IMG/VR virus record: IMGVR_UViG_3300028920_000047
Span: 1-64,000 of that record
DNA from: a virus
DNA length: 64,000 nucleotides
Reading direction: 5' to 3' (one strand)
Shown here: positions 6,111 to 27,592 of the stretch, one piece after another
Position numbering within the stretch: the stretch's first letter is position 1
How the letters are laid out: the number at the start of each line of letters is the position of its first letter
The notes under the pieces: model-generated
The model's database searches: none
The model's input: only the letters and a program-made list of their open reading frames with translations
What the model was told of the DNA's origin: nothing
Translations under genes and position numbers: made by a program

Positions 6111-6128
6111 TACTTTTTTACCTCCTTT

Positions 6129-7832: not shown

Positions 7833-8486
7833 TTACATATTTATTCTTCCTATTTCATTTCTTATTTGCAATAAATGTTTTTCTATTATATCTATCACTT
7901 CTTGGTCATTATAAGAATAATTGGATAATTTAGATAATCTCATTACCTCTTGATTTACATGCCACAAATGAGATTTAATATTTGTTATATTACCTTCTTT
8001 AAATTTCCTTTTACTTTCAGGCACATAATCAGCATCTATCCCGGTATCGCCACCAAAAGATTTTGGTTTAATAGGTTCAAATATACTACTTGGATACCAC
8101 TCCTCATCACCGTAATCATTCCAAATTAAATAATGTGTTTCATTATTCATAGTCTTAGTATCTTCAACATCATATAATTCATTAAGTGTTAAAGCGTAAT
8201 CATCAACGTCTACACATTTGACCTCAGTAGGAGGTTCACCCTGATACCTTTCTTCATTTTCTACGAGCTGCTGATTTCTTTTACGATGTGCTATTTTTGG
8301 TTTGTTAAATGATTGGAAAAAACCAAGTTCTTTCTCATAATCATCTGCTTCTAACGGTTTATTATACGAAGACTGTATTGTTGATGGTTCAATAACCGGT
8401 TTACCTCCAACAAGCCGTTCACCATCAATACCCAGTTTATCATTCATAAGTTTCATCATATCAGTTTCCACACTATTTGCTCCCAT
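7833..8486 (-). CDS. Hypothetical acidic virion/head protein
   Basis: 217-aa ORF with PESKRKFKEG-type motif like the neighbouring cargo proteins. Confidence 0.5.
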   Translation of the reverse strand: MGANSVETDMMKLMNDKLGIDGERLVGGKPVIEPSTIQSSYNKPLEADDYEKELGFFQSFNKPKIAHRKRNQQLVENEERYQGEPPTEVKCVDVDDYALTLNELYDVEDTKTMNNETHYLIWNDYGDEEWYPSSIFEPIKPKSFGGDTGIDADYVPESKRKFKEGNITNIKSHLWHVNQEVMRLSKLSNYSYNDQEVIDIIEKHLLQIRNEIGRINM

Positions 8487-8496
8487 ATTATCCTCC

Positions 8497-9084
8497 TTAT
8501 ATAGTTAAATCTATAGTATAACTATCATCAATAGTTAAACAAATTTTACCACCATCTACATCATCGTCTATTAAAAATGTACTATATTCAAAAGATGCTC
8601 GAAATTCATAATAAGTAGTACCTTCATATATACGCTGAGCGGTAGGTGTGGTCTTATCAAATTTTAAATTAAGATAAAATGTATAATCGATACTTTCGTT
8701 AGTAAAAGTTAATTGAGGATTTTTACGCTGCATAAAAAAGAAATTCTTTAAAAATGGTATATACTCAGTTAACACTTTTCCATAATTAAAAAAAGCATAA
8801 AAATTCATTGGTGCTCTTATTGGCACTAAAGGTTTTTTTGTGGCAACATCATCATCATGAGACACATAAATACCATCATAATATTCTGGATAATCTATGG
8901 ACTTATCTATTTGCACCTGGTTATCATTAAACCATAAACAATAGAATGGACATAATATTTTATTATTAGCCTCGGCATTTTTACGAAAAGCTTCCTCAGG
9001 TTGAGCTATACGAAAATTATTATCATCAATATCCAACAAATCTTTTAAATATGCTTCTAAAGCTAATACCGACACTTTTAACAC
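8497..9084 (-). CDS. Tail terminator / sheath stabiliser (gp15-like)
   Basis: Position between neck gene and sheath, size, and P-F-x-C-L-W pattern. Confidence 0.5.
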   Translation of the reverse strand: MLKVSVLALEAYLKDLLDIDDNNFRIAQPEEAFRKNAEANNKILCPFYCLWFNDNQVQIDKSIDYPEYYDGIYVSHDDDVATKKPLVPIRAPMNFYAFFNYGKVLTEYIPFLKNFFFMQRKNPQLTFTNESIDYTFYLNLKFDKTTPTAQRIYEGTTYYEFRASFEYSTFLIDDDVDGGKICLTIDDSYTIDLTI

Positions 9085-9087
9085 TTT

Positions 9088-9534
9088 TTACCAAACCTCC
9101 TCTTTATCAAAATCTATTACATAAATTCTTTTGACCTCGTTTATCCTGGAACTAACTAAAACATCAACAACCTTATAATATTCAGTAATTGTCGTATCAT
9201 CAATATTATTTCTAATCGATTTAAACTTGGCACCCTTTTGAACATCATCAATATATTTAAAATGCGCCAACATTACTTCCGGTGTACCAATACCCGGCCC
9301 CTCCTCTTTCAATAAACCATAACTTCTCAATAATTTTCTATCTCTAACATTTCTAATTAAAGCCGTAGTTTCAATAGGGTCATCATATGTTATAGTTTCT
9401 TCATCAAAATCATTTAGAGTAACACTCGCTACGTTTTTTAGTTCTACATCAATATTTAATAATGGTATACGTACCAACACATCGTTTATTCGCCGCATCG
9501 CTGCCGCGAATGCTTTACTTATTATTTTAGCCAT
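9088..9534 (-). CDS. Neck / head-closure protein (gp14-like)
   Basis: NDFDE..TYDDPIET..LLRSYGLL pattern and synteny. Confidence 0.55.
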   Translation of the reverse strand: MAKIISKAFAAAMRRINDVLVRIPLLNIDVELKNVASVTLNDFDEETITYDDPIETTALIRNVRDRKLLRSYGLLKEEGPGIGTPEVMLAHFKYIDDVQKGAKFKSIRNNIDDTTITEYYKVVDVLVSSRINEVKRIYVIDFDKEEVW

Positions 9535-9938
9535 TATTGTGGTACCTTTACTTCAAAACTTTGTAAAGCTGTTTCTTCAAAATAATCTACAGCTTGTTTA
9601 AAATCAATGAGGGATTGCTCCTCAATCAAATAAAATTGCATTACAAAACTACCATCAATATTAACCATAAAATTATCCCCCAAATTAGAGGGTTGTGAGT
9701 TAATATTGACTCTAACTGTCCACTTATCTTCCTCTATAGATATGAGTTCACAAGTTAGTATAATATATTTATTTTCCCAGGCTCGTGTATAGACCAAAAT
9801 ATTTTCATTTGGTTGTTCTATTAACCGATAACCATACTTACTAATAATATCCTCAATTTTATCCTTCATATATCTACGGTTAACACGACCTGCTTCATAA
9901 ATTTTCTTATTTATCCTATCTATAATTTTTTTAATCAT
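9534..9938 (-). CDS. Hypothetical protein (possible head cargo)
   Basis: Basic leader ending KIYE. Confidence 0.5.
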   Translation of the reverse strand: MIKKIIDRINKKIYEAGRVNRRYMKDKIEDIISKYGYRLIEQPNENILVYTRAWENKYIILTCELISIEEDKWTVRVNINSQPSNLGDNFMVNIDGSFVMQFYLIEEQSLIDFKQAVDYFEETALQSFEVKVPQ

Positions 9939-9940
9939 TT

Positions 9941-12900
9941 TTATATTTCCTCTTCCATATCTGACGGCACTCTTGAGCCAGGCTCATTAACTGGTAAAGC
10001 TTGTTGAGATTCGCCGGTATCATATGGTTCTATTATTTCATTTTCAATAAGCTCAGCAAATTGGTCCTGACTGAAATATACTTTCTCACCTTCAACAGAA
10101 ATTTCTACATAAGTAGCCGGTACTTCCTCAAGTTCATTATTGTCATCAAAACCTAATACATCGTCACCCAACAATTCGGGTTCAACCAATATATCATTCT
10201 TTTTATCTTCTATATCATTTCTATCAATAACTGGATATTCATCACCCGCTGTAATATTACCGACCTCTTTTTTTATCCGCTTTTCGAGCTCAATATAATC
10301 ATCATCTTCAAGCTCATTATTATTATCATATTCAGAGCCAGATAATTCGTCTACAAATCTCTGTATAATGGAAATCAATTTTTCATCACCTAATGCTTGA
10401 ATAAGTTCTGGATTATTGGCGAATATTGATATAACTTTTTTATCAACACTATCTAAATCATTATACGATTTTTTATCATAATGCCAGGCATAAAACTTTC
10501 CTAACAATTTTGATATAAACCCTTCTTTTTTCAATCTCTGATTTTTGATTTGTTCAGTTAACTTATCAAATATTGTTTTAGCCCACTGTTTAAAGTCTAA
10601 AGCTTCACCACCCATTTCTGCCATATCGTTTTTATATTCCTGATAATTTGTTTTTAAATTTTTATCAGTTTTATATTTATCAAACCATTCAGTAAAAGAA
10701 TCGCCGTTTGGTACCCAGGTTTTGACCCATTCACCTTCTTTAATAGATTTTGATTCACCTATTAAATTTACATTACACTTTGGACATTTTATTTCATTAC
10801 AAGGTTCCCCTTTTTTATGTACTTCTTTATATCCACATTCCGGACATACGCAGGTAATAGCTCCTCCATCACCTTGTCGGCGTCCACCTTTTCCTAAACC
10901 TTGACCACGGCCTTCCTTTTTGGCTTTATGACCTATACCCATTAACTCATCACTATCCTGAATAGGTGATAAGTTGTAATCAATACCCTCTTCTTCCATG
11001 CGTTTAAATAATTGTAACGCTTCATATTGGTCAAGTATTATTTTAACAACCGGTATCTGCTGGTTTTCATTTTGTTTTTTATAAGCTCTAACTCGATGAT
11101 GTCCGTCTAATATAAAATTATCTTCACTTATAAAAACAGGAGTGGTAAAATTTTCTTCACCTGATTCAATAGCTTTATAAATATTATCAACTTTTTCCTG
11201 CACAAAATCTTCCTGACTTGGTTTCAGGTCGGAAACCTTAGCTATTGTCTCCTTGTACTGAATTGCTAAATTATCTAAAATCTTTTTAGCAGCATGCCAT
11301 TCTTTATCCCTGATTTGAGAAATTTGATTACGTTTAAGTTCAGTCTTTTCACTAAACCCATCTTCCTGCTCTTCCTCATCTTCTTCAATTTCTTCTTCCG
11401 GACCAGAACTTTCCACATTATCCACTATAAAGGTCTGACCCTCGGCCACTAACTGTTCTATATAATTATCAAGCTGTGTTTTTGATACAATTTCTCCTTC
11501 CGGCGCTTTACCGATTCTATAAATATCTTCATTAGCTATAAACTGGTCGCCATCATTTACTTCCAATATTTCATCTTCCTCAATATCTTCTTCCGGTTCC
11601 ATAGGTTCTTCAGCTACCGGGTCACTAAATTCATCAATATCTTCATCCTGTTCTTTTTTTAACTTTTTTTTCTCAACTTCTAAACCTACATCCATTAATA
11701 TTGTATCAGTTAACTCCCCGCCGGGAAAAGCGGCATCTAAATTATCTGTTAATTCTTTTAAATTGGTAGCAGACAAAACACCAGTTTTTGCCTTATCGAA
11801 ATCCGCTTTTTTTGGAAAAGCGGTTGAATCAGATTCCCATTCCGGGTCATCTTCTAATATTGATTCATATTCTTGATTAAGTCTGTTAATTACTTTATTC
11901 TTGATACTTTTACTAACCGTTTCTTTTAACTTTTTTTTCTCAACCGGCGTTAATTTCGGAACCCTATTTACATCCACCGACGTCTGATTTAATGTTGGGG
12001 GTTCCTCCCCAGGTCTTGGTAGTCTGGTCTTAGGTTCAAGATTGGCGTTTATAACCACACTATCAATATTCATAAATTCATCAAGCGTATTGATTTGAGT
12101 ATCAAGTTTATTAAAAATATTTTCCCATTCATTTTTAGAATAACTACTTCTGGCTATTTCCGTTGAACCGTATTTAGATAAATTATTGAAATCAGTCGGT
12201 AATAAACAAAACTGTGCCGGTTTAAGCTGGTTTTCTCTAAATGATTTTTCTTTTAATGTTGCTTTAGCATCTTTAGCGTTAGGATTATCTATCATGAACT
12301 TCTCCAAAGCTTGTCGAACATTTTCCGCTTCTACTGTTTTAGAGCATTCCTGACCATCCTGGTCGATATAATCTATTATAATTGTCGCCTCGTTTAAACC
12401 CATTAACTCATCACTGCCCTGAATAGGTGATAAATTGTAATCAATTTCTTTAAACAATTTATCTAAAACCCTTTTAACATATTCAACTCTTTTTACATTA
12501 TTTAAAAGTACACCTTTTTCAGTTTTTTTAAATCCCTGGATATGTCCAATTTTTTTCAATTTACTTAAACAATAACGAATTGGTACAACATTTTTAACTT
12601 TAGCAAAAGATAAAACATAATTACTTTCCTGCTTTATACCCTTTTTGCCAGGTATACCAATTCCCATAAGCTCATCAGAACCGGACATTGGGCTTAGATT
12701 GTAATCTACCTCATAAATCTTCATATCAATATCCCTAAGCTCTTTTTCCAACTCTTTTAATCTACTTACCGGGCCAATAGCAGTTATACTATTATCTTCA
12801 AAATTTTCTTCTAATTTACAATCCTGATAACGGTACATAATATTAACAAACACTTCGTTCATTACGCCCTCAAATACCAGTTTACCCGATTCCTTTGATA

Positions 12901-13204
12901 CTTTAGATTCTTTAAAAGTGTGGTATTTATCATCCTGTTCATCAATCATTCGTACAATGGTTTTACCCGCTGCTGCTAATACTATAAATTTTTCACTGCC
13001 AAAGAATCCTTTACCCTCATTAAAACTATCAATAAGATTTTTAGCGTATTTATCACTATCAAACTTTTGTACCTTATCATATTTATTAGCCACTTTTTTA
13101 AGAGTATATACTTTACCCTCAAATTTTAACTTTTCGCCCGGTATCAATTTTTGTTTTGGTTCAATCTTTTTATTGAACTCTTTGAAAAATCCTTTTGTAC
13201 TCAT
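9941..13204 (-). CDS. Large acidic multi-module protein with ParB/Srx-like domain, Cys-rich Zn module and triple peptide repeat
   Basis: LKPSQ...ILDGHHR (ParB-N-like); CVCPECG..H..GEPC..IKCPKC; DYNLSP...SDELMG three times. Confidence 0.75.
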   Translation of the reverse strand: MSTKGFFKEFNKKIEPKQKLIPGEKLKFEGKVYTLKKVANKYDKVQKFDSDKYAKNLIDSFNEGKGFFGSEKFIVLAAAGKTIVRMIDEQDDKYHTFKESKVSKESGKLVFEGVMNEVFVNIMYRYQDCKLEENFEDNSITAIGPVSRLKELEKELRDIDMKIYEVDYNLSPMSGSDELMGIGIPGKKGIKQESNYVLSFAKVKNVVPIRYCLSKLKKIGHIQGFKKTEKGVLLNNVKRVEYVKRVLDKLFKEIDYNLSPIQGSDELMGLNEATIIIDYIDQDGQECSKTVEAENVRQALEKFMIDNPNAKDAKATLKEKSFRENQLKPAQFCLLPTDFNNLSKYGSTEIARSSYSKNEWENIFNKLDTQINTLDEFMNIDSVVINANLEPKTRLPRPGEEPPTLNQTSVDVNRVPKLTPVEKKKLKETVSKSIKNKVINRLNQEYESILEDDPEWESDSTAFPKKADFDKAKTGVLSATNLKELTDNLDAAFPGGELTDTILMDVGLEVEKKKLKKEQDEDIDEFSDPVAEEPMEPEEDIEEDEILEVNDGDQFIANEDIYRIGKAPEGEIVSKTQLDNYIEQLVAEGQTFIVDNVESSGPEEEIEEDEEEQEDGFSEKTELKRNQISQIRDKEWHAAKKILDNLAIQYKETIAKVSDLKPSQEDFVQEKVDNIYKAIESGEENFTTPVFISEDNFILDGHHRVRAYKKQNENQQIPVVKIILDQYEALQLFKRMEEEGIDYNLSPIQDSDELMGIGHKAKKEGRGQGLGKGGRRQGDGGAITCVCPECGYKEVHKKGEPCNEIKCPKCNVNLIGESKSIKEGEWVKTWVPNGDSFTEWFDKYKTDKNLKTNYQEYKNDMAEMGGEALDFKQWAKTIFDKLTEQIKNQRLKKEGFISKLLGKFYAWHYDKKSYNDLDSVDKKVISIFANNPELIQALGDEKLISIIQRFVDELSGSEYDNNNELEDDDYIELEKRIKKEVGNITAGDEYPVIDRNDIEDKKNDILVEPELLGDDVLGFDDNNELEEVPATYVEISVEGEKVYFSQDQFAELIENEIIEPYDTGESQQALPVNEPGSRVPSDMEEEI

Positions 13205-13253
13205 TATAAATTACCTCGCTTTTAAAAATTTAATATTTTTCCCATACTCATTC

Positions 13254-13721
13254 TCATTTATTTTTTTCGAACTCAGTTTTAGCCAACTGTTGTACTCTTT
13301 TTATAGCTGCATCCAAATAGTCAAATAATGTATCATCACCAACAACATCATAATATTTGTCCTTTAATTGATTTACAGCGCTGATAAATTGTTCTATCTC
13401 TTCACTATTACCGATTGACCAGGTTCCTTCTTTTTTTAGTTTTTTCTCGAACACAGCCTTTAGATATTTCTCCGTTTGGCCGTCAGGATATTGAAAAGTT
13501 ACTGTTGTATCATCCAGCTCTATTATTTTTACTTTTGCTTCTTTACCGGTTAATGAACTTTGAGCTGGTAAGGTTATAATTTTATCAAGTGTCAACTTTT
13601 GCTTTTTAATATCAGCATCACCGCTTTGTAACTCTTCCTTACCTGCGTCTGTATCCGGTTTAGGGGTTTTAGTTTCTTTCTCATAAACAGCTTTACCTTT
13701 TTTCTTAAATCTTATTTTCAT
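13254..13721 (-). CDS. Hypothetical head-cargo-like protein
   Basis: KKLKKEG motif divides two apparent modules. Confidence 0.55.
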   Translation of the reverse strand: MKIRFKKKGKAVYEKETKTPKPDTDAGKEELQSGDADIKKQKLTLDKIITLPAQSSLTGKEAKVKIIELDDTTVTFQYPDGQTEKYLKAVFEKKLKKEGTWSIGNSEEIEQFISAVNQLKDKYYDVVGDDTLFDYLDAAIKRVQQLAKTEFEKNK

Positions 13722-13737
13722 AATTACCTCACCTTTT

Positions 13738-15579
13738 TTATATTATTTTATCAACAATACCATACTCTACTGAATCATCGGCTGACATCCAATAATCACG
13801 TTCAATATCTTTTTCAATCTTTTCTGTGGTATGTCCACAAGCTTCAGCCAAAATATTAACAATTTGTTTCTTTAATCTTTTAGTCTCTTTTAACTCAATT
13901 TCCTGGTCGGTAGCTGATTCCATGGAAAAGAATTTAAAAGTAGCTATATCATGGATTAAAATCCTACTATGTTCGGTAATATATCTTTTACCTTTAGTAC
14001 CACAAGCAAGTAAAATTGCCCCCATTGAGGCAGCTTGCCCAATACAAATAGTCTTGATTTCACACTTACATCTTCTCATCACGTCTATTAAAGCCAGACC
14101 AGACACCACGGCACCGCCAGGACTGTTTATATATAACTCAATAGGTTTTTTAGGATTTTCAGCTTCTAATAATAATATATCCTGCATCAGCCTATTTACA
14201 CTATCACTATACACACCATCTACAAAAAACAATTTTCTATTTTTACGTAATTTTTCTTCGGTCGTCATTTCTTTTTCTTCTTCATAAGTTTTTTCTACTT
14301 CCGTTACCAACTGTTCATTAAATAATTTTTTTTCAGCCGCGGCCCTTACTGTTTCTTTAATATTATGGTCTCTCATTAGCTGGTCAAGTCTTTGTATAGC
14401 ACTGATAATATCATCGGTAGAAGTATGTCTTATATCCTGAATATTAGCGGTACTATTCATTACTTCATCAACCTGCGGTTCTAATGCTGAATAGTTTTCG
14501 ATTATATTATCAGCCTTATCTATTAGTAAATCAATCAATTTACGACGGCTATATTTACTATAACTATATTTACCTTCTTTTTTTAAAGGTTCGTCTGCTA
14601 CCAATGTATGAACCTCGGCGTTTGGGGTCAATTCGTAGTTATAAATCTTACCGGTTTTGTGGTTAACCAGGTTCCATTTATTATCAATATCAACAATGAT
14701 TAACTTTGTTGGGTCTACCTTATCTAAACTTTGTTCTAATTCTGAAGGTATTTCAAGCTGCATATAACTTTTGCCGTAATCAACATTTTGTGGTTCACCC
14801 TTTACTTTTATAATAACATCTTTATCATTTACTTTAGTGGTAAATGATGTATAAGGTGCTGGTGTTACTTTTGGGTTTTCTTGAGGCCCACGAGCATCTT
14901 GGGACGGTTCTTCATAATCTTTAGGTGTATCCTGTTTTACATCTTTTTCAATAATACCACGCCTCTTTAAAATCTTTTTTATTTTTTCGCTCATACCTTC
15001 TTCGCCTCCTAAAATTAAATCACCATTATCATTTTTTTTAATATTTTTAGCCATTTGTTGCATTGTTTCAAACGCATCTTCGTAATCATCGGTATAATAA
15101 GATTTTTCTTCGTCAATCTTATCGCCCTCTATCCACTGTATAACCCATTCATCCCGCTCTTTATTCCTTACCATTTTTAAAGTTATATCGTTTATAGTTA
15201 TTTTTTTATCAGTACTCTCTTTAATAAATTTACCATTTAAATTTTTCATTTTTACTAACCTCTTATCCGTATACCAAAATACATAATTAAAATTAGTTAT
15301 ATTTTTGTTAATATATCTCAATACCTTTCGCCAATCGTTTTCTAATGTTTCGTTATTTGAATATATTTGTATTTCACTTTCATCTTTTTTAACTCGTAAA
15401 GCAATTTCACCAAGTCTAATTAAATCCTTACGATTACCTTTTTGTATTCGGGTTGAATAACTGCTATGGGTATCATCCGGGTGTAATTCTATTGTTCGAT
15501 AAGTATCACCTACCGGTGTTAAAAAGTATCCATCATAATCTTTTGATACATACTGGTCCCAATTAAACATTTTCCACAT
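13738..15579 (-). CDS. clpP: Multi-module protein with C-terminal ClpP protease domain
   Basis: LYINSPGG, QAASMG (Ser), ILIHD (His), ERDYWMSA, EYGIVDKII. N-terminal extension of about 430 aa. Confidence 0.9.
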   Translation of the reverse strand: MWKMFNWDQYVSKDYDGYFLTPVGDTYRTIELHPDDTHSSYSTRIQKGNRKDLIRLGEIALRVKKDESEIQIYSNNETLENDWRKVLRYINKNITNFNYVFWYTDKRLVKMKNLNGKFIKESTDKKITINDITLKMVRNKERDEWVIQWIEGDKIDEEKSYYTDDYEDAFETMQQMAKNIKKNDNGDLILGGEEGMSEKIKKILKRRGIIEKDVKQDTPKDYEEPSQDARGPQENPKVTPAPYTSFTTKVNDKDVIIKVKGEPQNVDYGKSYMQLEIPSELEQSLDKVDPTKLIIVDIDNKWNLVNHKTGKIYNYELTPNAEVHTLVADEPLKKEGKYSYSKYSRRKLIDLLIDKADNIIENYSALEPQVDEVMNSTANIQDIRHTSTDDIISAIQRLDQLMRDHNIKETVRAAAEKKLFNEQLVTEVEKTYEEEKEMTTEEKLRKNRKLFFVDGVYSDSVNRLMQDILLLEAENPKKPIELYINSPGGAVVSGLALIDVMRRCKCEIKTICIGQAASMGAILLACGTKGKRYITEHSRILIHDIATFKFFSMESATDQEIELKETKRLKKQIVNILAEACGHTTEKIEKDIERDYWMSADDSVEYGIVDKII

Positions 15580-16426
15580 CTCTCCTAATATCTTTATATT
15601 GTTTTAATTTCAGAATATACCCGGTTTTGTCTAACATTTTATAAATCATATTTTGTATACTTTTATTACCTTTACCTAAACCTCCGTGAAGCTCAAGTTC
15701 TTCACCGGCGTAAGCACCACTACGTAAATCCTTTAACATTTTCTTTTGTAAGAATAAAGCATCTAAATCACTTTTTAGTTCCTCCTGTTTTTGAGCTATC
15801 CTTGTTTCTATTTCATCTTTTTCCCACTCTTCTGCATAATTTAGATAATCCTGGTACATTTCTATTTCCGCTTTATCGGCTTCATACTCCTGTATCCTAT
15901 CATCTATACCACTCATAAATATTTTAGCTATTTCCATTATATGGGATACCGGCGGTTTAATCTTTTCATATTCGGGTTTTTCTATCCACTTATTATTTAA
16001 CAAATCATAGACCGAACCCTTACCAACACTACCAACAAATTCATCACCTACATGAGCATAATATTCTATACGATGGCCGGTATCGGCTAAATTCTCCTGC
16101 GGGCCAGCGGTTACTAATCTTACCGCCTCTTCTACCTCATCGTCAGCTACTTCAATATGTATATCTATATCAGTACTATCATTATATTGATATCCTGTAT
16201 TAGAACCGGTAAAATGAACATTAACTATTTTATCTTTCATTCGCTCTGGCAAATCTTTAAATATAGGATTTAATAATTCTTCTCTTACTTCCGGTTTTAT
16301 CGTCATATCATCATTCCAAATAGCCGGGTTTAATTCCTTATGTACCGGGTCTAAAATTGATTCCATTTTTAACTTTGGTATCTTACTATTTCTTATTTGA
16401 TTAAATTTTCTAAAAAATTCCTTCAT
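15563..16426 (-). CDS. Pol-beta-superfamily nucleotidyltransferase
   Basis: HFTGSN..YQY...DIDIHI (GS + DxD); GSVYDLLNNKWI. Confidence 0.8.
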   Translation of the reverse strand: MKEFFRKFNQIRNSKIPKLKMESILDPVHKELNPAIWNDDMTIKPEVREELLNPIFKDLPERMKDKIVNVHFTGSNTGYQYNDSTDIDIHIEVADDEVEEAVRLVTAGPQENLADTGHRIEYYAHVGDEFVGSVGKGSVYDLLNNKWIEKPEYEKIKPPVSHIMEIAKIFMSGIDDRIQEYEADKAEIEMYQDYLNYAEEWEKDEIETRIAQKQEELKSDLDALFLQKKMLKDLRSGAYAGEELELHGGLGKGNKSIQNMIYKMLDKTGYILKLKQYKDIRRDVENV

Positions 16427-16452
16427 TATTTATCATACCGGCCTTAATATTT

Positions 16453-17541
16453 TTAAACTTTTGACCACAAAGGTATTATTTCACTAACATCTTTCAACTT
16501 CTTATTTTCATTTTGTTGATTTTGTACAAAGTTTATATCAAAATTTTCCTCTAAACATTTATACACCTTATCAGCTGTTTTGTCATATTCGGGAGCTACA
16601 TCAACTAACAAATCATATCCGCCGGCCATATTGCCCTGTATATACAAATGAACTTCGTGGTCAGTAAATTCAGGTATGTCGCCGGTTAATTGTTCCATTA
16701 TTAACTCCCAGGCTTGCCAATCTTCTACATGTTCACCATTTATTTCCGCATAATCAATACCTTGCCCACTCATTTTGATATGGTCAGTATAATAAAAAGT
16801 TATTTTAGATTTGTTATTCTCTTCTGGATAATAATCTTCGTCGGTTGAATTCATTGCCCAACTCATTTCATCTTCCTCTTTTTTTACCTTTTTGTTTTCA
16901 CGTAAAAAATAATTATTACTTATTTGTACAACTTCATCAGATGTTAAATCCTTTATATTATGTTGCCAGGCAAAATTGTTAACAAAATTAGGACTGGCTT
17001 CGTCGGTTAAAACTTCTTCTTTTCTCATCATTTGTATAATTTTATCTATTACATTCTGTCTTATATTCTGTTCTTTTTTCATTTTTTTCTTATCATATAT
17101 ACCTACGAAGTCTTCTTCATCTTCATCCGTTTCACGGCTATCTTCCTTTCCTGCGACAAATATATGACTACGATGTGGATATTTACTCCAGCTTTCACCG
17201 TTCCAATAATCAGTACCACCGAAATAACTATAGTATACCTCACCATCAGTATCAGCAACAAAAATAACCTGTATATCTTCAGCGGTAGGATTATCATTCC
17301 ACATATTATCTATTTGTTCAGCCAAACCATTAACGAAGTCATCATTTTTAAACTCTTCACAACTTTGTTCAATCATATTTATAATTTCATCAGGCTCATC
17401 ACCATCAAAAGTTCGTTCAAACTCCATAAAGATATCGTTTACAATTCTTTTAGCTTCTTCACGAGCTTCATTACTTGCACTTTCTTTTATAACTCTTCTC
17501 TTCTTTTCCCAAAACTTTTTAAAATAATTTTTAACCGTCAT
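16453..17541 (-). CDS. Acidic multi-module putative head-cargo protein
   Basis: Shared N-terminal leader; VIKES, KKMKKEQ and KKVKKEE motifs. Confidence 0.6.
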   Translation of the reverse strand: MTVKNYFKKFWEKKRRVIKESASNEAREEAKRIVNDIFMEFERTFDGDEPDEIINMIEQSCEEFKNDDFVNGLAEQIDNMWNDNPTAEDIQVIFVADTDGEVYYSYFGGTDYWNGESWSKYPHRSHIFVAGKEDSRETDEDEEDFVGIYDKKKMKKEQNIRQNVIDKIIQMMRKEEVLTDEASPNFVNNFAWQHNIKDLTSDEVVQISNNYFLRENKKVKKEEDEMSWAMNSTDEDYYPEENNKSKITFYYTDHIKMSGQGIDYAEINGEHVEDWQAWELIMEQLTGDIPEFTDHEVHLYIQGNMAGGYDLLVDVAPEYDKTADKVYKCLEENFDINFVQNQQNENKKLKDVSEIIPLWSKV

Positions 17542-17545
17542 TGTT

Positions 17546-17776
17546 TTAACTCCTTACATCTAAATATAAACCTTTTAATAGTTTAAAATTTCTAACACCG
17601 GAACTGGTGCTAACCGGTCCCTTGTTTATATGATTAACACTTAATTTCTTATTTGTATTTGATACATTTTTTACAGCCTGTACTACAGTTTCGTTTTTTG
17701 GTAATACCTCAGATGCTTTCATTATCATTAAATTATTAAAACTTCCTTTTATACCAATATTACCTACTACATTCAT
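17546..17776 (-). CDS. Hypothetical protein
   Basis: 76-aa ORF overlapping the upstream stop codon. Confidence 0.45.
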   Translation of the reverse strand: MNVVGNIGIKGSFNNLMIMKASEVLPKNETVVQAVKNVSNTNKKLSVNHINKGPVSTSSGVRNFKLLKGLYLDVRS

Positions 17777-20700
17777 GCTAACCTTTTCTCCTTATTATAA
17801 GCCCGGCCTTTAGGCAACTCTTTACCCTGCATTTTTAAAATACGAGCAAAAGTTCGATAAAACTCATCATAATGCTGCTCCGCTGCTTTTAGATTTTTTT
17901 CAAACTCTTCCTTAGGTATTAAATAATTACCCTCGTCGTCTAAATATTTTTCGTCAAAATAAGTTTCTATATCCATATACAAATGAGCTAACACCGGGTA
18001 ATCAATATGAACCTGATTAATAGCATTATCTATGGCAATACTTAACTTGTTTGTATCATTTTTTTGTATAGCCTGGGACAATTCATCTCTATTGGCCTTA
18101 AAATCATTTATTACTTTACCTTCACCTTCATCCCATCTTATACTGCCAGGATAATCCTTATACCATTGTAAATAATCGTCAAAATAGTATAACAAATCAT
18201 TAGCTATTTTAAACAAATCGACTTTATCCGGCATCAGCCCCATTTCATAATCTCTATATATTTTGTTTAAAGTTTTAAAATCGACAGTAGCAGCGCGTTC
18301 TTTTTTTAACTTCTTTTCACTTAACTGGTCCAAAGTTTGTCTTCCTCCTTCAACCCATTCATCGCCATAATCAATTCTATCGTGAGCAAAATTTATAAAC
18401 TGGTCGAGCGCTGTCATTTTTTCTTTATTTGTTTTAGCGTAATACATTAAATTATCCCAAAGTATAATACCTGGGCCACTATCATAAAAACTAAATAACA
18501 TATCAGTATTATCTTTTTTAATATCACTGGTTATGTTATATGTTTGTTCCCAAATGTTAAAATGTTCTCTCTCTTCTTCGTTGGTTAAATTATTATAATA
18601 ATCTTTAAATTGTTTCACATTATTTATAAAATTACTTAAATTTCTGTAAATAGTTTTTATAATTAGGTCTAATAATTTTTCATCTATATAACCTTCAGCT
18701 TCTTTTTTATATAATCTTTGTAACCAGTTTTTCTTAATAAACCCGGTATCAGTGGATAAATCCAAACTTTCAGTCCATTCCCATAACTCTTGTGGTGATA
18801 AATGTTTCTGTTCCTTTTTTAATTTTTTCTGTTCATTTAAATCCTCTATATCCACATCAACTAAACTACTGCCGGTATCTATTTTAACTACATTAACGTC
18901 AACATTTTTTACAACGCCGGGCTTATTGGCTTCAGAAGAATATTTTGCCATATTAGGAATAGTAATTTCGTCCCCTATTTCATATTCTTTTTTAAAACCT
19001 TTTTGTTTTCTTACACTGTCCCAGTTAATTATATTTATAGCATCCTCCAATTCCTGTGAACTATAACCCGATATATCTACGTTTAAATTACTTGCTGTAT
19101 AATAAATCGCTTTTTCTTTTGCATGGGCAACATTTTTTATCTTGGCATACTGCTTTAATATATCATCCCCATATATCATAACGAAATCCTTTATAGTACT
19201 GCTTCCACCAGATGTTTTTTCTTTTACCTTAGGCCAATTGATTAAAGCCGCCAATTTATCATATTTATAATTTTCTGTTCCCGATAATCCTTGGCTCATT
19301 TCATTAGCAGTTGCAAATATTGCGTCCATTTTATCCTCAATTGTGTTGGAGTAATCATGTATGTGCCAGAACTCGAGTATCTGGTCTTCATATTTTTTAA
19401 TAAAAGAAGCAATATCCATCGTTCGATTTGTTGAAACAATACCTACATAATGCCCGGACAACGAAGGATTGTGGGCACAATAACTACGCAATGAATCATT
19501 AACCTCATCATACCAGTCCGGGTCGTTCTTTTTTGAACCGTCGATAGTGACTATTACCTTTGTCCCGCCATCTACAATTTGTCCGACTTCTAAAGCCAGC
19601 TCGTGGTGCTTAATTGCGTTTTTTATTGTTTGTATATTATCTTCAGTAACAACCTTATCATCGAATATTAAGTAATATTCATTTTTCCATTCTTTAGCTG
19701 ATTTACCTTTTTCAACATTACTAAGAAATTCTTTTGCTGATATAATAAAATTATCGGCTTTATTTTGAGCCCAATGCGGTTTATTACCAATATATAATTT
19801 ACCAAAATTAACAATATCCAGTTTAATTAATGTATTATCTTTATAATCATTAAACATATCCCCTAAGTCTATTTCGGCTTCCGACCAGCCCCATTCGTAA
19901 TCATCTATTAATATTTCAACAATCTTGTTAAATTCCTGTTGAGTGGGAGTATGTATGAACACATTTTTACCACAATGTTCCTCAATTTCTTCAATAGCTG
20001 TAGGAAATGGGTTTTTTAATAAATCCTTTATCATGATTTCATTTTTTTCATTCTGTTCTAAAGACAGGGTTAAAAATTCACCATAAGATAATTTAGCTCT
20101 TTTTTCTTCATCATCGGATAATAAAAAAACATAATCATCATCATAATCATCAACGTTCATCAATATACCATTATATTCAATAATATTACCCATAGAATTC
20201 TTTATAATATCTTCTATATCTTCATCACTTAACTGTTCTTCTTCTTCCTTAGATTGAACATCCGGTTCAGAAATTTTTTCAATTTCAGAAGCATTAACAT
20301 ACCAACACGCTTTATCCTTCCCAACTATCTTTTTTCCATTATTTATATCAATTAAACCATTTCCATTATGCCCTGTATTGTAATTCTCAAATTCAACACA
20401 GATGGACTTCGAATCGTGTGCAATCGCAATTATTTTTCCAATACTATCAGTAGATGGTGCCATTTTATTCTTAGTAGACAACGACTTTAAAATTACCTTA
20501 TCACCTACTTTAAATTCTTCTTTCTTACCAACAACGTTTTGTTCGGGTTCAGGAGCAGTAATATTTACATCTTTTGAAAGTAGCTCAACTAATTCAAAAA
20601 AAGATATACGAGCTTCTTTAGTGATGAACAGGCCTTCCGGGTCTGTGTCGGTCATAAGAATGACTTTACCACCAGAAACCGGGTCAGAGTCAATACTATC

Positions 20701-23604
20701 AACAACATGCATTAGTACACCATCAAAAAGTACTTCATCACCTATTGCATCAGTAGCAAGATTTTCCAACTGTTTATTACTAAGGTCTTCAATATAAGTA
20801 AAATTCGGATATTGAGATTTAACCATTTTATAAACTTCTTCTGTAGACACACGTATATTATCTTTCATCGGGTCTATTAAGATAATATTTTCATAATCCT
20901 CGTCCCAATATTCTTCAATGGTTACGTTAACACCCTCGTATTCAATATTTAACCCAATCAAATTATATTTAGTATAAACTTTGTTAGGTAATATTGACGG
21001 AACTGGACTAACTGAAACCTTTTTAGTAGCTGTTTTTAATATTATAGTGCCATATTCTTTTTTATTTAAAAAATCCTCTAACGTTGTACCCTCCACATCT
21101 TTTAAAGCTTTGGCAAAAGGACCTTTCAACTGAGTACTTATTTTTTCATATATTTCCCATATATCCTTTAATTTGGCTTTAAAATCCAAAGCTTTTTTAA
21201 TCCAATTATAACCATTGCCATAATATGATTTAATCTTATTAAAAACTGTATTTGTATTATGCTGTAAATCATATACATGGTCAACAGCTATTATTTTATC
21301 CTGCTCATTATCCGCATCAATTAACATTATTAACCCTTTAGCTATACCACTCCACGCAGCGCCGCCATAGGCCGTGCGCCAGCGAATGTTTCCATAATCG
21401 CCACCAAAATCAAATATATTTGCTATCATATACGCAACTTCTTTAATAGTGGTACCAGTTTTACTCATAGCTGTAACCAATGCCTGATAACTTTTTTTAT
21501 AGGATGATTGATTATCTTTTAAACTTTTTCTTATCCTATCCAGGTCAAACACTATATCATCCGGGTCTTGAGTATAACCACTTATATAATATTGCCAGAA
21601 TTTAGGATTACCATAATTTTTAAACCAGCTACGCAGAAGTTTTTTAGAATTTTCGTCAAACATATGTCTTAGTTCTGCAGAAATGGCAAACAATAAACTC
21701 TTTTTAAACTCCTTTAAATGAAAATCAATTATCGCGTCCTTAGCTTCCTGTAAAGCGGTTCTTAAATCCATGTCGTTTATTGCATTTATATTCAAATAGG
21801 TTAAAGCATAAAAATCAAATAATCTATCCTTCGGGTTATCGGGAACTTTATAAACCCAGTTTGCATATGCTTCTTTAAGTTCCCCAGGTTCCCGACCCGA
21901 CGCAATAAATTGGTTTAGCGCGTCTATCTGGTCAACAAAATTATTATATAATTTAGTAGTGTCCATATATTTATCAATCCAATTATATTTATCAGTTTCA
22001 ATAAATGTTTCTAAGGTCGGTAAAACTACTTCATCAAGAAGAGTATCCGCCCATAAATCAGAATCAATTGCAAAAATCTTACCGTTACTAATCTCACCAG
22101 AACCGGATATCCATTGTGTTGATTCCTCTTCGTAATCAATATGCCCAATAATTTCTTTATAAAAGTCAACATGAATTTTCTCATATGCGTCCCAAACATA
22201 AACCTTTTGATTTCGTAAATCAGCGGCAAACCTTATTTCATATGGCCATCTTAACGATTGTTTCATCATTTTTATAAGCTTTGCTACATCCCGGCTATTT
22301 GGGTTTACAAAAACAGCTACACCATCTTTAAAAGTATTATAATATTTCTCATTTATCCTTTTATTTTTTTCTAACGTCATGGTCGACCAATCGATATATT
22401 TATGTAACCACGGCGGATATAATTCATTATCGTTCATTGTGTGAGAACTAACCATATCAACTTGTATACGGTCTCTATATACCGTCCCGTCAAATAAACA
22501 ATTTGAATCCGATACCGGTATTAAAGCCTTTTCAAAATCTTCATGTAAATGGTCATATCCATCAAACACGTATAGTGTTTGTGCTTCATAATCTATTATA
22601 CCCTTTATCTCATTACTTACAGAATTTTTTCTAAGCTCAATTATATCTTTTTGATTAGGGTTAATAAACACATCTGTCGATTTTCCTTCTGGATTAGTTA
22701 TGGTTTCAAACCACTTTTCATTTATTTTTTTACTCTCTTTTCTAAATCCCTCATCATCAACTTCTTTTTCACCAGGTGGATTGAAATGCCAATCATTTAA
22801 ATACTGGTCAACTGTTTTTAACTTTTTAGCATTTATATCAAGTTGTTTTTCTATTTCCTCATCCGGTACTTCTAAAGGTTCCTCCGTCTCCGGTAATTCC
22901 TCCCCAGGTTCAACCCTCTGTACCTCTTTACCAAAATTTTTCAAATGAAATGATGGTTTAGCACCTTTTATAGAAGCTGCTGTTATTTCTGCTTCAGTAG
23001 GCGGTTCAACTTTTAATTCCCGGTCTGGTGTAGCTGGTGCTTTTTTGTCTATTAAATATTTTCTAATATCATGTGTTATAGTCATCATTACAAATGGTAA
23101 TACTTTTAATACTCTATACAAATGCTTACATACCGTGCCGGCTAATCCAGGATTTCTAACATCGGGAAATCTATCTTCCGGTTCAATACCCGCATCAATA
23201 TTCCATAATATATATTGTGGCCCCCAGTAGAGAAAAGCGGGACAGCTACAATATAATGCAACATCACCAAAAACCAGTAGCCTTATTTTTTCATTAGGTT
23301 TTAATGTATCATCATTCAATATATCTTTTGTTTCTAACAATTCTATCTTCTCTTCATATTTAATACCTTTCTTATACCTGCTATTATCCCCTTCTCTATC
23401 CATACTGGGGGTGATGAAAAGTATTTCAATATTACCATTATCATTTATATAACTTTTTTCATAATAGGTAGGCCAACCATCAACTCTGTCCTCTATTTTT
23501 GTTTTAATAGGCGGAGAGTCATCAGAGTCGGCCAATAATTGTTTAAATGTTATTTCATCTAAACGTTCCTTATGTAAAAAAGCATTTAATGTTTCAGCTA
23601 TCAT
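17773..23604 (-). CDS. 1943-aa polyvalent protein with N-terminal SWIM Zn finger
   Basis: YCSCPAFLYWG...VCKHL (SWIM), internal duplicated domains, YGGAAW...DHVYDLQHNT domain. Confidence 0.75.
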   Translation of the reverse strand: MIAETLNAFLHKERLDEITFKQLLADSDDSPPIKTKIEDRVDGWPTYYEKSYINDNGNIEILFITPSMDREGDNSRYKKGIKYEEKIELLETKDILNDDTLKPNEKIRLLVFGDVALYCSCPAFLYWGPQYILWNIDAGIEPEDRFPDVRNPGLAGTVCKHLYRVLKVLPFVMMTITHDIRKYLIDKKAPATPDRELKVEPPTEAEITAASIKGAKPSFHLKNFGKEVQRVEPGEELPETEEPLEVPDEEIEKQLDINAKKLKTVDQYLNDWHFNPPGEKEVDDEGFRKESKKINEKWFETITNPEGKSTDVFINPNQKDIIELRKNSVSNEIKGIIDYEAQTLYVFDGYDHLHEDFEKALIPVSDSNCLFDGTVYRDRIQVDMVSSHTMNDNELYPPWLHKYIDWSTMTLEKNKRINEKYYNTFKDGVAVFVNPNSRDVAKLIKMMKQSLRWPYEIRFAADLRNQKVYVWDAYEKIHVDFYKEIIGHIDYEEESTQWISGSGEISNGKIFAIDSDLWADTLLDEVVLPTLETFIETDKYNWIDKYMDTTKLYNNFVDQIDALNQFIASGREPGELKEAYANWVYKVPDNPKDRLFDFYALTYLNINAINDMDLRTALQEAKDAIIDFHLKEFKKSLLFAISAELRHMFDENSKKLLRSWFKNYGNPKFWQYYISGYTQDPDDIVFDLDRIRKSLKDNQSSYKKSYQALVTAMSKTGTTIKEVAYMIANIFDFGGDYGNIRWRTAYGGAAWSGIAKGLIMLIDADNEQDKIIAVDHVYDLQHNTNTVFNKIKSYYGNGYNWIKKALDFKAKLKDIWEIYEKISTQLKGPFAKALKDVEGTTLEDFLNKKEYGTIILKTATKKVSVSPVPSILPNKVYTKYNLIGLNIEYEGVNVTIEEYWDEDYENIILIDPMKDNIRVSTEEVYKMVKSQYPNFTYIEDLSNKQLENLATDAIGDEVLFDGVLMHVVDSIDSDPVSGGKVILMTDTDPEGLFITKEARISFFELVELLSKDVNITAPEPEQNVVGKKEEFKVGDKVILKSLSTKNKMAPSTDSIGKIIAIAHDSKSICVEFENYNTGHNGNGLIDINNGKKIVGKDKACWYVNASEIEKISEPDVQSKEEEEQLSDEDIEDIIKNSMGNIIEYNGILMNVDDYDDDYVFLLSDDEEKRAKLSYGEFLTLSLEQNEKNEIMIKDLLKNPFPTAIEEIEEHCGKNVFIHTPTQQEFNKIVEILIDDYEWGWSEAEIDLGDMFNDYKDNTLIKLDIVNFGKLYIGNKPHWAQNKADNFIISAKEFLSNVEKGKSAKEWKNEYYLIFDDKVVTEDNIQTIKNAIKHHELALEVGQIVDGGTKVIVTIDGSKKNDPDWYDEVNDSLRSYCAHNPSLSGHYVGIVSTNRTMDIASFIKKYEDQILEFWHIHDYSNTIEDKMDAIFATANEMSQGLSGTENYKYDKLAALINWPKVKEKTSGGSSTIKDFVMIYGDDILKQYAKIKNVAHAKEKAIYYTASNLNVDISGYSSQELEDAINIINWDSVRKQKGFKKEYEIGDEITIPNMAKYSSEANKPGVVKNVDVNVVKIDTGSSLVDVDIEDLNEQKKLKKEQKHLSPQELWEWTESLDLSTDTGFIKKNWLQRLYKKEAEGYIDEKLLDLIIKTIYRNLSNFINNVKQFKDYYNNLTNEEEREHFNIWEQTYNITSDIKKDNTDMLFSFYDSGPGIILWDNLMYYAKTNKEKMTALDQFINFAHDRIDYGDEWVEGGRQTLDQLSEKKLKKERAATVDFKTLNKIYRDYEMGLMPDKVDLFKIANDLLYYFDDYLQWYKDYPGSIRWDEGEGKVINDFKANRDELSQAIQKNDTNKLSIAIDNAINQVHIDYPVLAHLYMDIETYFDEKYLDDEGNYLIPKEEFEKNLKAAEQHYDEFYRTFARILKMQGKELPKGRAYNKEKRLA

Positions 23605-23650
23605 AATTTAATCCGAATTCATTTTAAATCTGACTCCCTATTTTTTAAAA

Positions 23651-24421
23651 TTATGAGAAATCAAACCCTTCAATACCTAAATTTTGACAAAACTGTTCCC
23701 AGGCCATGACCTCAATTTGTAGTTGTTCATTATCTTCATCCATATCTAATTGGTTTGATAGCTCATCATGAATTTGTTCACATTTATTTTGCACGAACTG
23801 GATACCCTCATCTGTTAAATCATAATAAATATTACCCGCAGCTGATTCTTTCTTTAGCTTCTTTTTACTTTCATTTAATTTTACAACAGATTGAACGGAA
23901 CCTTGACCATAATCCGAATACTCTGAATCAATAATACCAAACAAGGATAAAGTATCACTATCCCCTAAATTATTGATTGCTGTTATCTTTAATATATCAC
24001 CTTCGTTTTGTACGTCTTCAATTTCTATACCATACTCACTTGAAGCATATCTTAACGCCTTTTCTAAGTCCTGTGAAGCCGTTTCCTTTGCCCGGATTGT
24101 GATTAAAACTTTGTCACCTTTATTTAGTGGTACATTTTCCGGCTCAGTTCCATTACTTGAAATTTCATTTTTAGTATTTTTCGACTCAGCCATAGGAACA
24201 ATTTCTAAATTATCAAATAAATATGTCCAAATAGTTTGATTTTGAGCTGCTAAATCATCTTCAAAATTTGTTAAAAACTCATCAATTATTTCGTCCTTCT
24301 CCGCTGCGTCTGTAACTACTTCAGGAAAAGAAACAGAAAGTTTAAATTTCTTTCTATCTTGTTCCTTTTTAATCTTCTTTTCCTCGTTAAACTTTTTCAT
24401 AAATTCTTTTTCACTACTCAT
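23651..24421 (-). CDS. Acidic putative head-cargo protein
   Basis: Leader KEFMKKFNE; KKIKKEQ and KKLKKES motifs. Confidence 0.6.
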   Translation of the reverse strand: MSSEKEFMKKFNEEKKIKKEQDRKKFKLSVSFPEVVTDAAEKDEIIDEFLTNFEDDLAAQNQTIWTYLFDNLEIVPMAESKNTKNEISSNGTEPENVPLNKGDKVLITIRAKETASQDLEKALRYASSEYGIEIEDVQNEGDILKITAINNLGDSDTLSLFGIIDSEYSDYGQGSVQSVVKLNESKKKLKKESAAGNIYYDLTDEGIQFVQNKCEQIHDELSNQLDMDEDNEQLQIEVMAWEQFCQNLGIEGFDFS

Positions 24422-24433
24422 TTTAAAATCCTC

Positions 24434-25591: not shown

Positions 25592-25596
25592 TTTAC

Positions 25597-25713
25597 TTAT
25601 AGTCCTAATAATTGTTTAGCTTTATCAAATCCTACCCACATACCTTCAGTATCATGACCACGGTCAGTCAAAGTTTGTTTAGCTATTTGTATTATATCAA
25701 TTTCGCCACTCAT
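25597..25713 (-). CDS. Small 38-aa ORF (not in ORF track)
   Basis: MSGEIDIIQIAKQTLTDRGHDTEGMWVGFDKAKQLLGL, with GGAGG upstream. Confidence 0.55.
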   Translation of the reverse strand: MSGEIDIIQIAKQTLTDRGHDTEGMWVGFDKAKQLLGL

Positions 25714-25717
25714 TTGT

Positions 25718-26131
25718 TTAAAACCTCCATCCTAAAGATAGTGACGGCATTACTTTTTCTGAATTTATATCTAAAGCCGTAGCCACATATAAACTATCAC
25801 TTAAATAAGTATTAAATTTTAATCTACCGGAAAACTGGTATTCGGTTGAATAACCTATCCCCGGGAAAAATAATATATCCACATTTTCAATTTCTATAGG
25901 AACGGTTATAGCTGCATACAAACTAATATTATCCCGATAATTATACTGAAGCGCTCCCTTTAGTCCCAAAACATTTAAAGATGATTCAACCATTACATTG
26001 TTGTATTTATACCCAGCCTCAAAATTTATAGCTGCGTACCAAAAATCTGCATAACCATGAGCATATAAAGAATTAGTATATATAGTTATACTCAGAACTG
26101 TTAAAAAAATTATTAACCATACTTTTTTCAT
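25718..26131 (-). CDS. Secreted small beta-barrel outer-membrane-like protein (start revised to 26131)
   Basis: AAGGAG RBS, signal peptide MKKVWLIIFLTVLSITIYTNSLYA, amphipathic strands, C-terminal SLSLGWRF. Confidence 0.65.
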   Translation of the reverse strand: MKKVWLIIFLTVLSITIYTNSLYAHGYADFWYAAINFEAGYKYNNVMVESSLNVLGLKGALQYNYRDNISLYAAITVPIEIENVDILFFPGIGYSTEYQFSGRLKFNTYLSDSLYVATALDINSEKVMPSLSLGWRF

Positions 26132-26156
26132 TTTTATGTTCTCCTTATTTATAATA

Positions 26157-27562: not shown

Positions 27563-27592
27563 CTTTAACTACCTCCTCTTTCCTTGATATCT

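Follow-up and report, generated by a model that had tools for sequence, protein, structure and literature searches.

A lysine-rich peptide repeat as a candidate cleavage code of a gp21-type prohead protease in the head module of an uncultured phage

Introduction

Does a short lysine-rich peptide that recurs in the head genes of an uncultured phage mark the positions at which the proteins carrying it are cut during head maturation, and, if so, by which enzyme? The question is raised by positions 1 to 64,000 of the IMG/VR record IMGVR_UViG_3300028920_000047 (hereafter the window), the first 64 kb of a 106,581-bp contig of ~31% G+C, in which the motif KK[LIVM]KKE occurs eight times in a block of open reading frames (ORFs) at 9941-24421. 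A first-pass annotation had read such strings as linkers of polyproteins that a T4 gp21-type protease, encoded at 29278-30729, would cut after Glu. Our analysis favors, at a probability of roughly 0.55, the reading that the strict motif is a lineage-specific cleavage code, by which this gp21-type protease would cut multi-module proteins targeted to the capsid. Precedents for the principle exist in phage T4 and giant phages; the signal is new. The proteases studied in this context, T4 gp21, phiKZ gp175, and SPN3US gp245, are all described as cutting after Glu (PMC9026906, PMC10052503).

A lysine-rich motif concentrated in one block of head genes

ORFs were taken from our own greedy longest-ORF caller, not from a trained gene finder, which gave 128 ORFs of at least 50 aa at 95.5% coverage; all features of the window described below lie on the minus strand. 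From 24421 down to 9941, the block encodes proteins of 256, 1943, 76, 362, 287, 613, 155, and 1087 aa, in this order. These eight ORFs (4,779 aa) contain eight copies of the strict motif KK[LIVM]KKE, against 0.02 copies on average, and never more than 1, in 1000 within-protein, composition-preserving shuffles. No copy is found in the remaining 120 ORFs of the genome (29,243 aa; 0.12 expected), in 857,195 aa of open frames of at least 100 aa from 161 other phage loci, or in the subset of these that comprises 65 low-GC loci (290,038 aa). The repeat is thus real and highly non-random. All the strings quoted in the first-pass annotation are present in translations of minus-strand ORFs of the sizes it gave, and the excess over the rest of the proteome that it had proposed as a check is borne out by the count of eight copies versus none.

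Weaker forms of the motif also occur outside the block. The core [LIVM]KKE occurs 11 times in the block (1.3 ± 1.1 expected) and 13 times outside it (6.2 ± 2.5 expected), a mild excess there too, with two of these 13 copies located in the protease and in a 319-aa capsid-like protein. The relaxed form [LIVMF]K.E[GSQ] is found 12 times in nine block ORFs (2.1 ± 1.3 expected) and eight times in the other 119 ORFs (7.8 ± 2.5 expected). The most enriched 5-mer of the block is KKLKK, with five copies in the block and none elsewhere, and KLKKE occurs five times in the block and once elsewhere. The extent of the system differs from the span of 7833-24421 first proposed: the four small ORFs at 9938-7833, which sit between the block and the tail genes, carry no core motif and are not part of it, while the motif-bearing set also includes the ORF at 26157-27116 and the protease gene at 29278-30729.

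The conserved object is a peptide. Codon choice varies among the copies (AAA/AAG for lysine; TTA/CTA/TTG/ATG/GTA/ATT/ATA for the hydrophobic position), which points to selection on the protein and not to a DNA repeat. The last position is Glu in all eight strict sites, and the residue that follows it varies (four Gln and one each of Gly, Ser, Glu, and Arg), the pattern of a protease whose specificity lies at P1. An acidic residue stands at P7-P9 in every strict site. The tandem arrangement with a preceding LNE, described earlier as frequent, applies to two of the eight strict sites, with FNE ahead of a third, and the remainder lack it; [LI]NE, considered as a second, T4-like code, is only weakly enriched (8 observed versus 5.1 ± 2.2) and was rejected as such.

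A gp21-type protease with the core motif at its own domain junction

By profile and alignment, the ORF at 29278-30729 is an S77 (T4 gp21-type) prohead protease. Residues 47-181 match the Pfam Peptidase_S77 profile PF03420 with 43.7 bits, against a cut-off of 27; phrog_207 matches at 2e-30, and the S80 profile PF20034 stays at 18.6 bits, under its cut-off of 23.4. The protein is 31% identical to T4 gp21 over 136 aa, and its DHP (aa 91-93) and SSRG (aa 145-148) stretches align with NHP and SSRG of gp21, which we take to hold the catalytic residues. The assignment proposed in the first-pass annotation is therefore upheld by a profile match above cut-off, and since the studied members of the family cut after Glu, cleavage after Glu is predicted here as well.

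The predicted protease domain (aa 1-221) is followed by a coiled-coil, scaffold-like tail (aa 222-483), and a core motif, LKKE221|S (codons 30067-30078; the bar marks the bond that would be cut), lies at the junction between them, 40 residues beyond the end of the Pfam match. Trimming on the C-terminal side of the protease, predicted here from sequence, would be common to this phage and T4, for whose gp21 C-terminal processing is expected (PMC9026906); SPN3US gp245 is described as removing its own C-terminal propeptide (PMC10052503).

The major capsid protein (27660-29174) is of the gp23 type (PF07068, 5e-33). In a BLASTP alignment with T4 gp23, the T4 maturation site FLTE65|A66 matches MFTE90|A91 (28902-28916), which is hence a homology-predicted capsid maturation site; the propeptide removed from T4 gp23 is given as 65 residues (PMC9026906). 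In seven more distant capsid relatives, the neighboring alignment column shows Met or Leu, any residue, and Glu, followed by Thr, Ser, Ala, or Glu.

Motif sites at the ends of recognizable modules

The 1087-aa multi-module protein (9941-13204) carries the strict site LKKE518|Q (11651-11662) and, further along, AKKE764|G (10913-10924), SIKE823|G, LKKE894|G (10523-10534), and IKKE980|V (10265-10276). Its ParB-like module (aa 618-745; 10970-11353) is identified by phrog_2859 (1.8e-18) and by a Pfam ParBc_2 match below cut-off (5e-4). The 59-aa Zn-ribbon module (aa 765-823; 10736-10912), recognized with HMMER and by alignment, is flanked by AKKE764|G and SIKE823|G and forms whole proteins of 54-80 aa elsewhere. 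In an alignment with 13 relatives, the conserved block begins at R766, just past AKKE764|G, and ends at G816, seven residues ahead of SIKE823|G. Among 1.84 billion cluster representatives, HMMER gives 826 matches to the 1087-aa protein, none of them full-length, and the best 150 of the 826 all fall on the ParB-like part (~aa 616-762) or the Zn-ribbon part (~aa 735-891). Both modules stand alone elsewhere.

In the 613-aa fusion protein (13738-15579), the core site LKKE335|G (14575-14586) is followed by a degenerate site, KKLFNE422|Q (14314-14331), and then by a ClpP domain (aa 423-613; 13741-14313; Pfam CLP_protease, 189 bits, 8.5e-56). This domain matches 110 ClpP sequences of the PDB at an E-value of 1e-5 or better, with the best, a bacterial ClpP, at 2.5e-44, and the stretches GQAASMG, IHD, and RDYW, which presumably hold the ClpP triad, are aligned. 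As judged from these alignments, aa 423-613 is a bona fide and apparently intact ClpP (S14). Residue 7 of the E. coli ClpP chain 1tyf_A (193 aa), which we take to be the mature form, aligns with residue 9 of the query domain, so that residue 1 projects to aa 422, the Glu of EKKLFNE422|Q. The domain sits behind a 422-residue extension of unknown family.

The 1943-aa protein (17773-23604) contains two strict sites, ending at E1598 (18811-18822) and E1769 (18298-18309). It also contains a tandem duplicated domain of ~120 residues (aa 288-405 and 411-535; 22390-22743 and 22000-22374), whose copies open with KKINEK and KRINEK and align with a score of 127, against 31.5 ± 6.4 and a maximum of 67 in shuffles; K[KR]INEK at both copies could also be simply inherited through the duplication. 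The remaining motif-bearing proteins of the block are those of 256 aa (23651-24421), with IKKE20|Q (24362-24373) and LKKE192|S (23846-23857), of 362 aa (16453-17541), with VIKE20|S, MKKE157|Q (17071-17082), and VKKE222|E (16876-16887), and of 155 aa (13254-13721), with the strict site LKKE98|G (13428-13439).

The earlier claim that the motifs fall at apparent domain boundaries is borne out only in part: sites, mostly of weaker form, coincide with module ends at the Zn ribbon, the start of ClpP, the protease junction, and the tandem domain, and seven of the eight strict sites have no independent boundary evidence. Pfam searches with 23 predicted fragments gave ParBc_2 (below cut-off) and chance-level matches only, and a self-comparison of the head-region proteins gave a paralogue of the capsid insertion domain and weak matches only.

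The Zn-ribbon module, for which no Pfam or PHROG family and no tblastn match in cultured phage records were found, has the pattern RGxGxGxGGxRQGDGG...CxCPxC...H..G.PC....CPxC, with 92 cluster representatives at an E-value of 1e-10 or better, and is present in at least 120 viral contigs. Many stand-alone forms have a short N-terminal extension that ends in Glu right before the conserved RG. We ran 19 of 43 host ORFs from viral contigs through PHROGs (among the 43, a single 608-aa protein recurs many times): the fusion partners of the module are head maturation proteases in five, a portal protein in one, and DNA methyltransferases in two, while five hosts have PHROGs of unknown function and six have no family. 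To judge from the annotated partners, these fusions fit a capsid-internal role, and the Zn ribbon may be a general capsid-internal or capsid-loading module.

A further feature of the 1087-aa protein is a 17-residue repeat, DYNLSP(I/M)xGSDELMG(I/L), present three times (12656-12706, 12392-12442, and 10931-10981) and absent from the rest of the genome. A Glu site lies 2-10 residues beyond every copy (IKQE|S, GLNE|A, and AKKE|G); the repeat could be a docking element or exosite.

A common N-terminal leader that resembles the T4 capsid-targeting sequence

Five proteins of the block, counted with the adjacent M16 peptidase, share a short N-terminal leader: MSTKGFFKEFNK in the 1087-aa protein, MKEFFRKFNQIR in the 287-aa protein, MTVKNYFKKFWE in the 362-aa protein, MSSEKEFMKKFN in the 256-aa protein, and MIKKYFEQFNKE in the M16 peptidase, where the next residue is Gln (MIKKYFEQFNKE|Q). 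The pattern [FYM][KRQE][KEQ]F, set post hoc after the sequences had been inspected, occurs within the first 15 residues of five of the 128 ORFs, all five within the nine-ORF block, with 0.39 expected genome-wide. In four of the five leader proteins, a site of the form hydrophobic-x-x-Glu follows 12-22 aa from the start: FNKE12|Q in M16, IKKE20|Q in the 256-aa protein, VIKE20|S in the 362-aa protein, and LKME22|S in the 287-aa protein.

In the T4 record NC_000866.4, ipII and ipIII begin with MKTYQEFIAE|A and ipI with MKTFKEF, and the leaders described here likewise place aromatics at positions i and i+3, followed by a Glu site. According to PMC9026906, the first 10 residues of IPIII suffice for packaging, with targeting mainly through residues 4 and 7 (Tyr and Phe) and processing through residues 8 and 10. 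The F-x-x-F leader of the five block proteins resembles the T4 capsid-targeting sequence (CTS), and the likeness proposed is one of function only. When the block proteins were scanned with Pfam and PHROGs, no family of internal proteins or of Alt appeared, and no direct comparison with the T4 internal proteins or Alt was made.

Relatives of the head genes and origin of the block

The phage has no close relative among the sequences searched. The best match to the capsid protein is 30.7% identical among 50,697 phage records, 35% among 5.8 billion clustered proteins, and 33% among IMG/VR contigs; from the viral contigs, 80 of 505 loci were kept as capsid relatives, all at 33% identity or less. 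Neither the capsid protein nor the 256-aa protein, each used singly to scan viral contigs, yielded a confirmed relative. For the 1943-aa protein, tblastn gave one partial match among the 50,697 phage records, a word-index search returned the protein itself only, with no homologue of near or shorter length, and residues 1400-1943 compared with shorter proteins gave no match. When the 19 head-region ORFs (7833-30729) were compared by tblastn with 82 loci (the 80 capsid-relative contigs and two T4 stretches), the matches were limited to the capsid protein, the protease, and three partial domains.

The nearest capsid relative with genomic context (locus L002, 32% identity) gives some indication of how the block may have arisen. 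Its capsid gene is followed by a gene for a stand-alone 163-aa protein (11210-11701 of that locus), 33% identical to residues 2-182 of the 1943-aa protein, and then by neck and sheath genes. From this alignment, the 1943-aa protein looks like a conserved virion module with ~1,760 added residues. Just upstream of its protease, the same locus encodes a 630-aa acidic protein (5833-7725) with two LKE|G strings, HEKLKEGN and GSLKEGK, which may be a joint motif of its own.

M16 (26-30% identity), the 287-aa protein, and aa 581-850 of the 1943-aa protein (21055-21864) have their sole homologues among phage records in uncultured huge phages of 595-735 kb (LR745206, LR756501-LR756511), which hints at gene flow with that group. 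In the 48 kb examined of one of them, LR756504, the M16 and 287-aa homologues are present, and its 45 ORFs include neither a comparable cargo block nor any [LIVM]KKE. The block therefore seems to be an insertion peculiar to this lineage, made up of modules that were recruited and fused.

A model of cargo processing and its alternatives

From these observations, we infer the following sequence of events. The proteins encoded from 25591 down to 9941 (M16 and those of 256, 1943, 362, 287, 613, 155, and 1087 aa) would be built into the interior of the prohead, most of them being recruited by the short amphipathic leader with its aromatic pair three positions apart (F/Y/M-x-x-F), much as by the T4 CTS. 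During head maturation, KK-hydrophobic-KK-E would be the site that the S77 protease recognizes and cuts after its Glu, with hydrophobic-x-K-E variants also cut at lower stringency; these cuts would remove leaders, part the protease from its scaffold tail, and split the large proteins. The 12 core sites in eight ORFs would yield ~20 pieces, among them the Zn-ribbon module, the ParB-like nuclease module, and a ClpP with a free N-terminus, which would stay with the DNA and probably be ejected into the host. The earlier picture of some 16 kb of small modules is overstated, since long stretches lack a core site, and among the presumed effectors the ParB-like, ClpP, M16, and Zn-ribbon modules alone are recognizable.

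Several observations weigh against this model. The capsid protein has no core motif, and its predicted site MFTE90|A shares with the motif the Glu at P1 and a hydrophobic residue at P4, not the lysines; T4-type sites carry their hydrophobic residue at P3, not P4. Two further apparently intact proteases, ClpP and M16, are encoded in the block. Apart from IKKE20|Q, which follows a leader, the strict sites are without independent evidence of a boundary because their flanks have no homologues. Hydropathy and polarity of the 12 residues on each side of 12 core sites do not differ from those at random positions of the same proteins (P = 0.54). The quality of the AlphaFold2 models, with a mean pLDDT of 39.3 for the 362-aa protein and of 41.2 for residues 1450-1943 of the 1943-aa protein, is too low for the sites to be placed. 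In the 1943-aa protein, no core site precedes the one that ends at E1598, and the 287-aa protein has none at all. The leader pattern was defined post hoc, and the 287-aa protein has a huge-phage homologue that begins similarly, so that in this case the leader may be an inherited family feature. Finally, no relative above 35% capsid-protein identity was found in the databases searched, and the cargo block is absent from the nearest relative with context.

The likeliest alternative is that the motif is not cut at all, being a charged helical linker or a docking element for scaffold, capsid interior, or DNA that is reused between modules of virion proteins. KKLKKE is basic and helix-prone, low-confidence AlphaFold models put the sites in or at the ends of helices, and the polarity of the flanks does not exceed that of the protein at large; moreover, the N4 virion RNA polymerase and some polyvalent proteins are described as being packaged uncut (PMC5512222). 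However, a pure linker or DNA-binding patch would need neither an invariant terminal Glu nor a variable residue after it, and an uncut linker is not expected at the end of the protease domain, right after the N-terminal leader of the 256-aa protein, or on both sides of modules that are free-standing elsewhere. We therefore regard an uncut element as unlikely. Rather less likely again is that the motif is a processing site for another enzyme, the ClpP-domain protein (13738-15579) or M16 (24434-25591), with the S77 protease cutting only the capsid protein and the scaffold. Both candidates look intact (2.5e-44 to bacterial ClpP; HLLEH in M16), many phages have ClpP-family enzymes that carry the annotation head maturation protease (phrog_94, 2e-39), and the dissimilarity of MFTE|A and KKLKKE would fit two proteases with two codes. 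Against such a division of labor, the S77 protease itself bears the core motif at its domain end, Glu at P1 is a hallmark of S77/S80 enzymes, and the ClpP domain appears to need a cut of this kind, at KKLFNE422|Q, to free its own N-terminus. On its own, ClpP shows low sequence specificity, and the substrates of M16 enzymes are mainly short peptides.

Two explanations that do without a peptide signal fare considerably worse. Several copies of the motif contain runs of 6-8 A, and A-rich stretches such as AAA AAA TTA AAA AAA GAA might act at the nucleic-acid level, as sites of ribosome sliding or frameshifting or as recombination joints for module shuffling, the more so as modules such as the Zn ribbon and the one at the start of the 1943-aa protein have clearly moved between phages. 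Yet the copies AAG AAG ATT AAA AAG GAA and AAG AAG CTA AAG AAA GAA have no long A run, and it is the amino-acid pattern that is conserved, not the DNA, which makes this very improbable. The block is also rich in Lys (10.7%) and Glu (10.1%), as might produce a compositional artefact in an AT-rich genome; a chance origin was rejected in view of eight copies versus 0.02 in shuffles and none in the 65 low-GC loci, and its likelihood is close to nil. 

Cleavage by the gp21-type protease remains our preferred reading of the motif. A broader version of it is more tentative: the capsid-maturation protease would double as a polyprotein processor with an unusually long, lysine-rich P7-P1 code, cutting leader-tagged giant proteins into ~20 modules within the capsid, activating ClpP and releasing M16, such that the virion would carry, and probably inject, a proteolytic and nuclease toolkit of its own.

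Comparison with known head-processing systems

With T4, the phage shares the S77 protease family and a gp23-type capsid protein in which the T4 cleavage position is aligned. It differs in that the motif is seven residues long, lysine-rich, and hydrophobic at P4, in contrast to the two-determinant T4 code (L/I)-x-E, in that sites lie deep inside proteins of 1,000-1,900 residues and not only near termini, and in that the protease is fused to a scaffold. In phiKZ and SPN3US, many head-internal proteins are reported to be cut after Glu by a gp21 relative, with several sites per substrate (PMC10052503, PMC9026906). For SPN3US gp245, which recognizes A-X-E, 14 sites are reported as mapped in nine proteins, and 13 of these remove N-terminal propeptides (PMC10052503), whereas the sites described here would also release C-terminal modules. 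The giant-phage code is given as (S/A/G)-X-E (PMC10052503) and is not the one found here, where Lys occupies P3 and P2 and P4 is hydrophobic; the present protease is, moreover, assigned to S77 and falls short of the S80 cut-off, and the genome measures 107 kb as opposed to 240 kb or more.

Polyvalent proteins (Iyer et al. 2017, PMC5512222), for example DdrB of phage P1, are described as large multi-domain proteins whose genes neighbor virion genes and which are predicted to enter the particle and to be delivered along with the DNA; ParB-like nuclease modules and the idea of cutting into units are likewise common to that account and to ours. The 1087-aa protein, with its ParB-like and Zn-ribbon modules encoded between the capsid and sheath genes, conforms to this description. 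The proposed cutter of polyvalent proteins is an embedded metallopeptidase (PMC5512222), whereas here it would be the capsid-maturation protease acting at a repeated linker code; searches with Pfam and PHROGs found no embedded zincin-like metallopeptidase in the block proteins or their fragments. If true, such a system would merge the targeting and trimming known from T4 with the polyvalent-protein strategy, without an embedded peptidase.

If the cuts are real, one could read from the motif what proteins a phage packs into its head and at which points they are parted, and ~15 kb of orphan sequence would turn into a parts list (a ParB-like nuclease, a Zn ribbon, ClpP, M16, and many unknowns). 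A long and highly specific site would then be within the evolutionary reach of a gp21-type protease, as would the processing of internal joints in addition to terminal propeptides, and leader plus seven-residue site would form a compact tag-and-release cassette for foreign capsid cargo, as has been done with the T4 CTS.

Layout of the head module and further observations

The gene content of the contig, as judged by Pfam and PHROGs, is that of a tailed phage, and the arrangement of the minus-strand head genes supports assigning the block genes to the head module of a myovirus of the T4 type. From the high-coordinate end, the order is the portal gene (33207-34862; phrog_213 and phrog_1497), the protease-scaffold gene, and the major capsid gene, followed by two small ORFs and the 319-aa protein (26157-27116). 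M16 (24434-25591) and the block come next, and the tail sheath (6129-7796) and tail tube (5595-6110) genes, both assigned by Pfam/PHROGs, lie beyond it; the block thus stands between the capsid genes and the sheath gene. A promoter and terminator scan of 12500-31500 gave counts close to shuffle expectation.

The 319-aa protein combines a core motif, LKKE300|L (26217-26228), 19 residues before its C-terminus with a capsid insertion domain that is 41% identical over 86 aa to aa 177-259 of the major capsid protein. It is possibly a vertex or decoration protein of capsid-gene origin.

M16 is an insulinase-type peptidase by Pfam (PF00675 and PF05193, both above cut-off), and its HLLEH (aa 49-53) aligns with HMLEH of PDB entry 5euf. 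With S77 and ClpP, this makes three apparently intact proteases, on sequence criteria, in one head module. Among the papers listed by a full-text literature search on M16 peptidases together with phages, virions, and prohead proteases, none contained the M16 term.

The N-terminal module of the 1943-aa protein (aa 1-182; 23059-23604) matches phrog_1722, annotated 'tail protein', at 2e-7 and has no Pfam match; a CxC...CxH pattern was read in it by eye. Farther on, aa 758-807 (21184-21333) give a sub-threshold Pfam match to MuF_C (E = 0.017, 15.7 bits versus a cut-off of 27.6) that, if real, would tie the protein to portal-associated MuF-type head proteins. The ESM Atlas contains no model of the 1943-aa protein and gave no usable match for the 256-aa protein, whose own model has a pLDDT of 0.53. 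The 287-aa protein (15563-16426; phrog_36119, 1e-13; no Pfam match), which begins with a leader and the site LKME22|S, contains a GS...TDIDIH string, read by eye, which we take to resemble the G-S...D-x-D signature of pol-beta-type nucleotidyltransferases.

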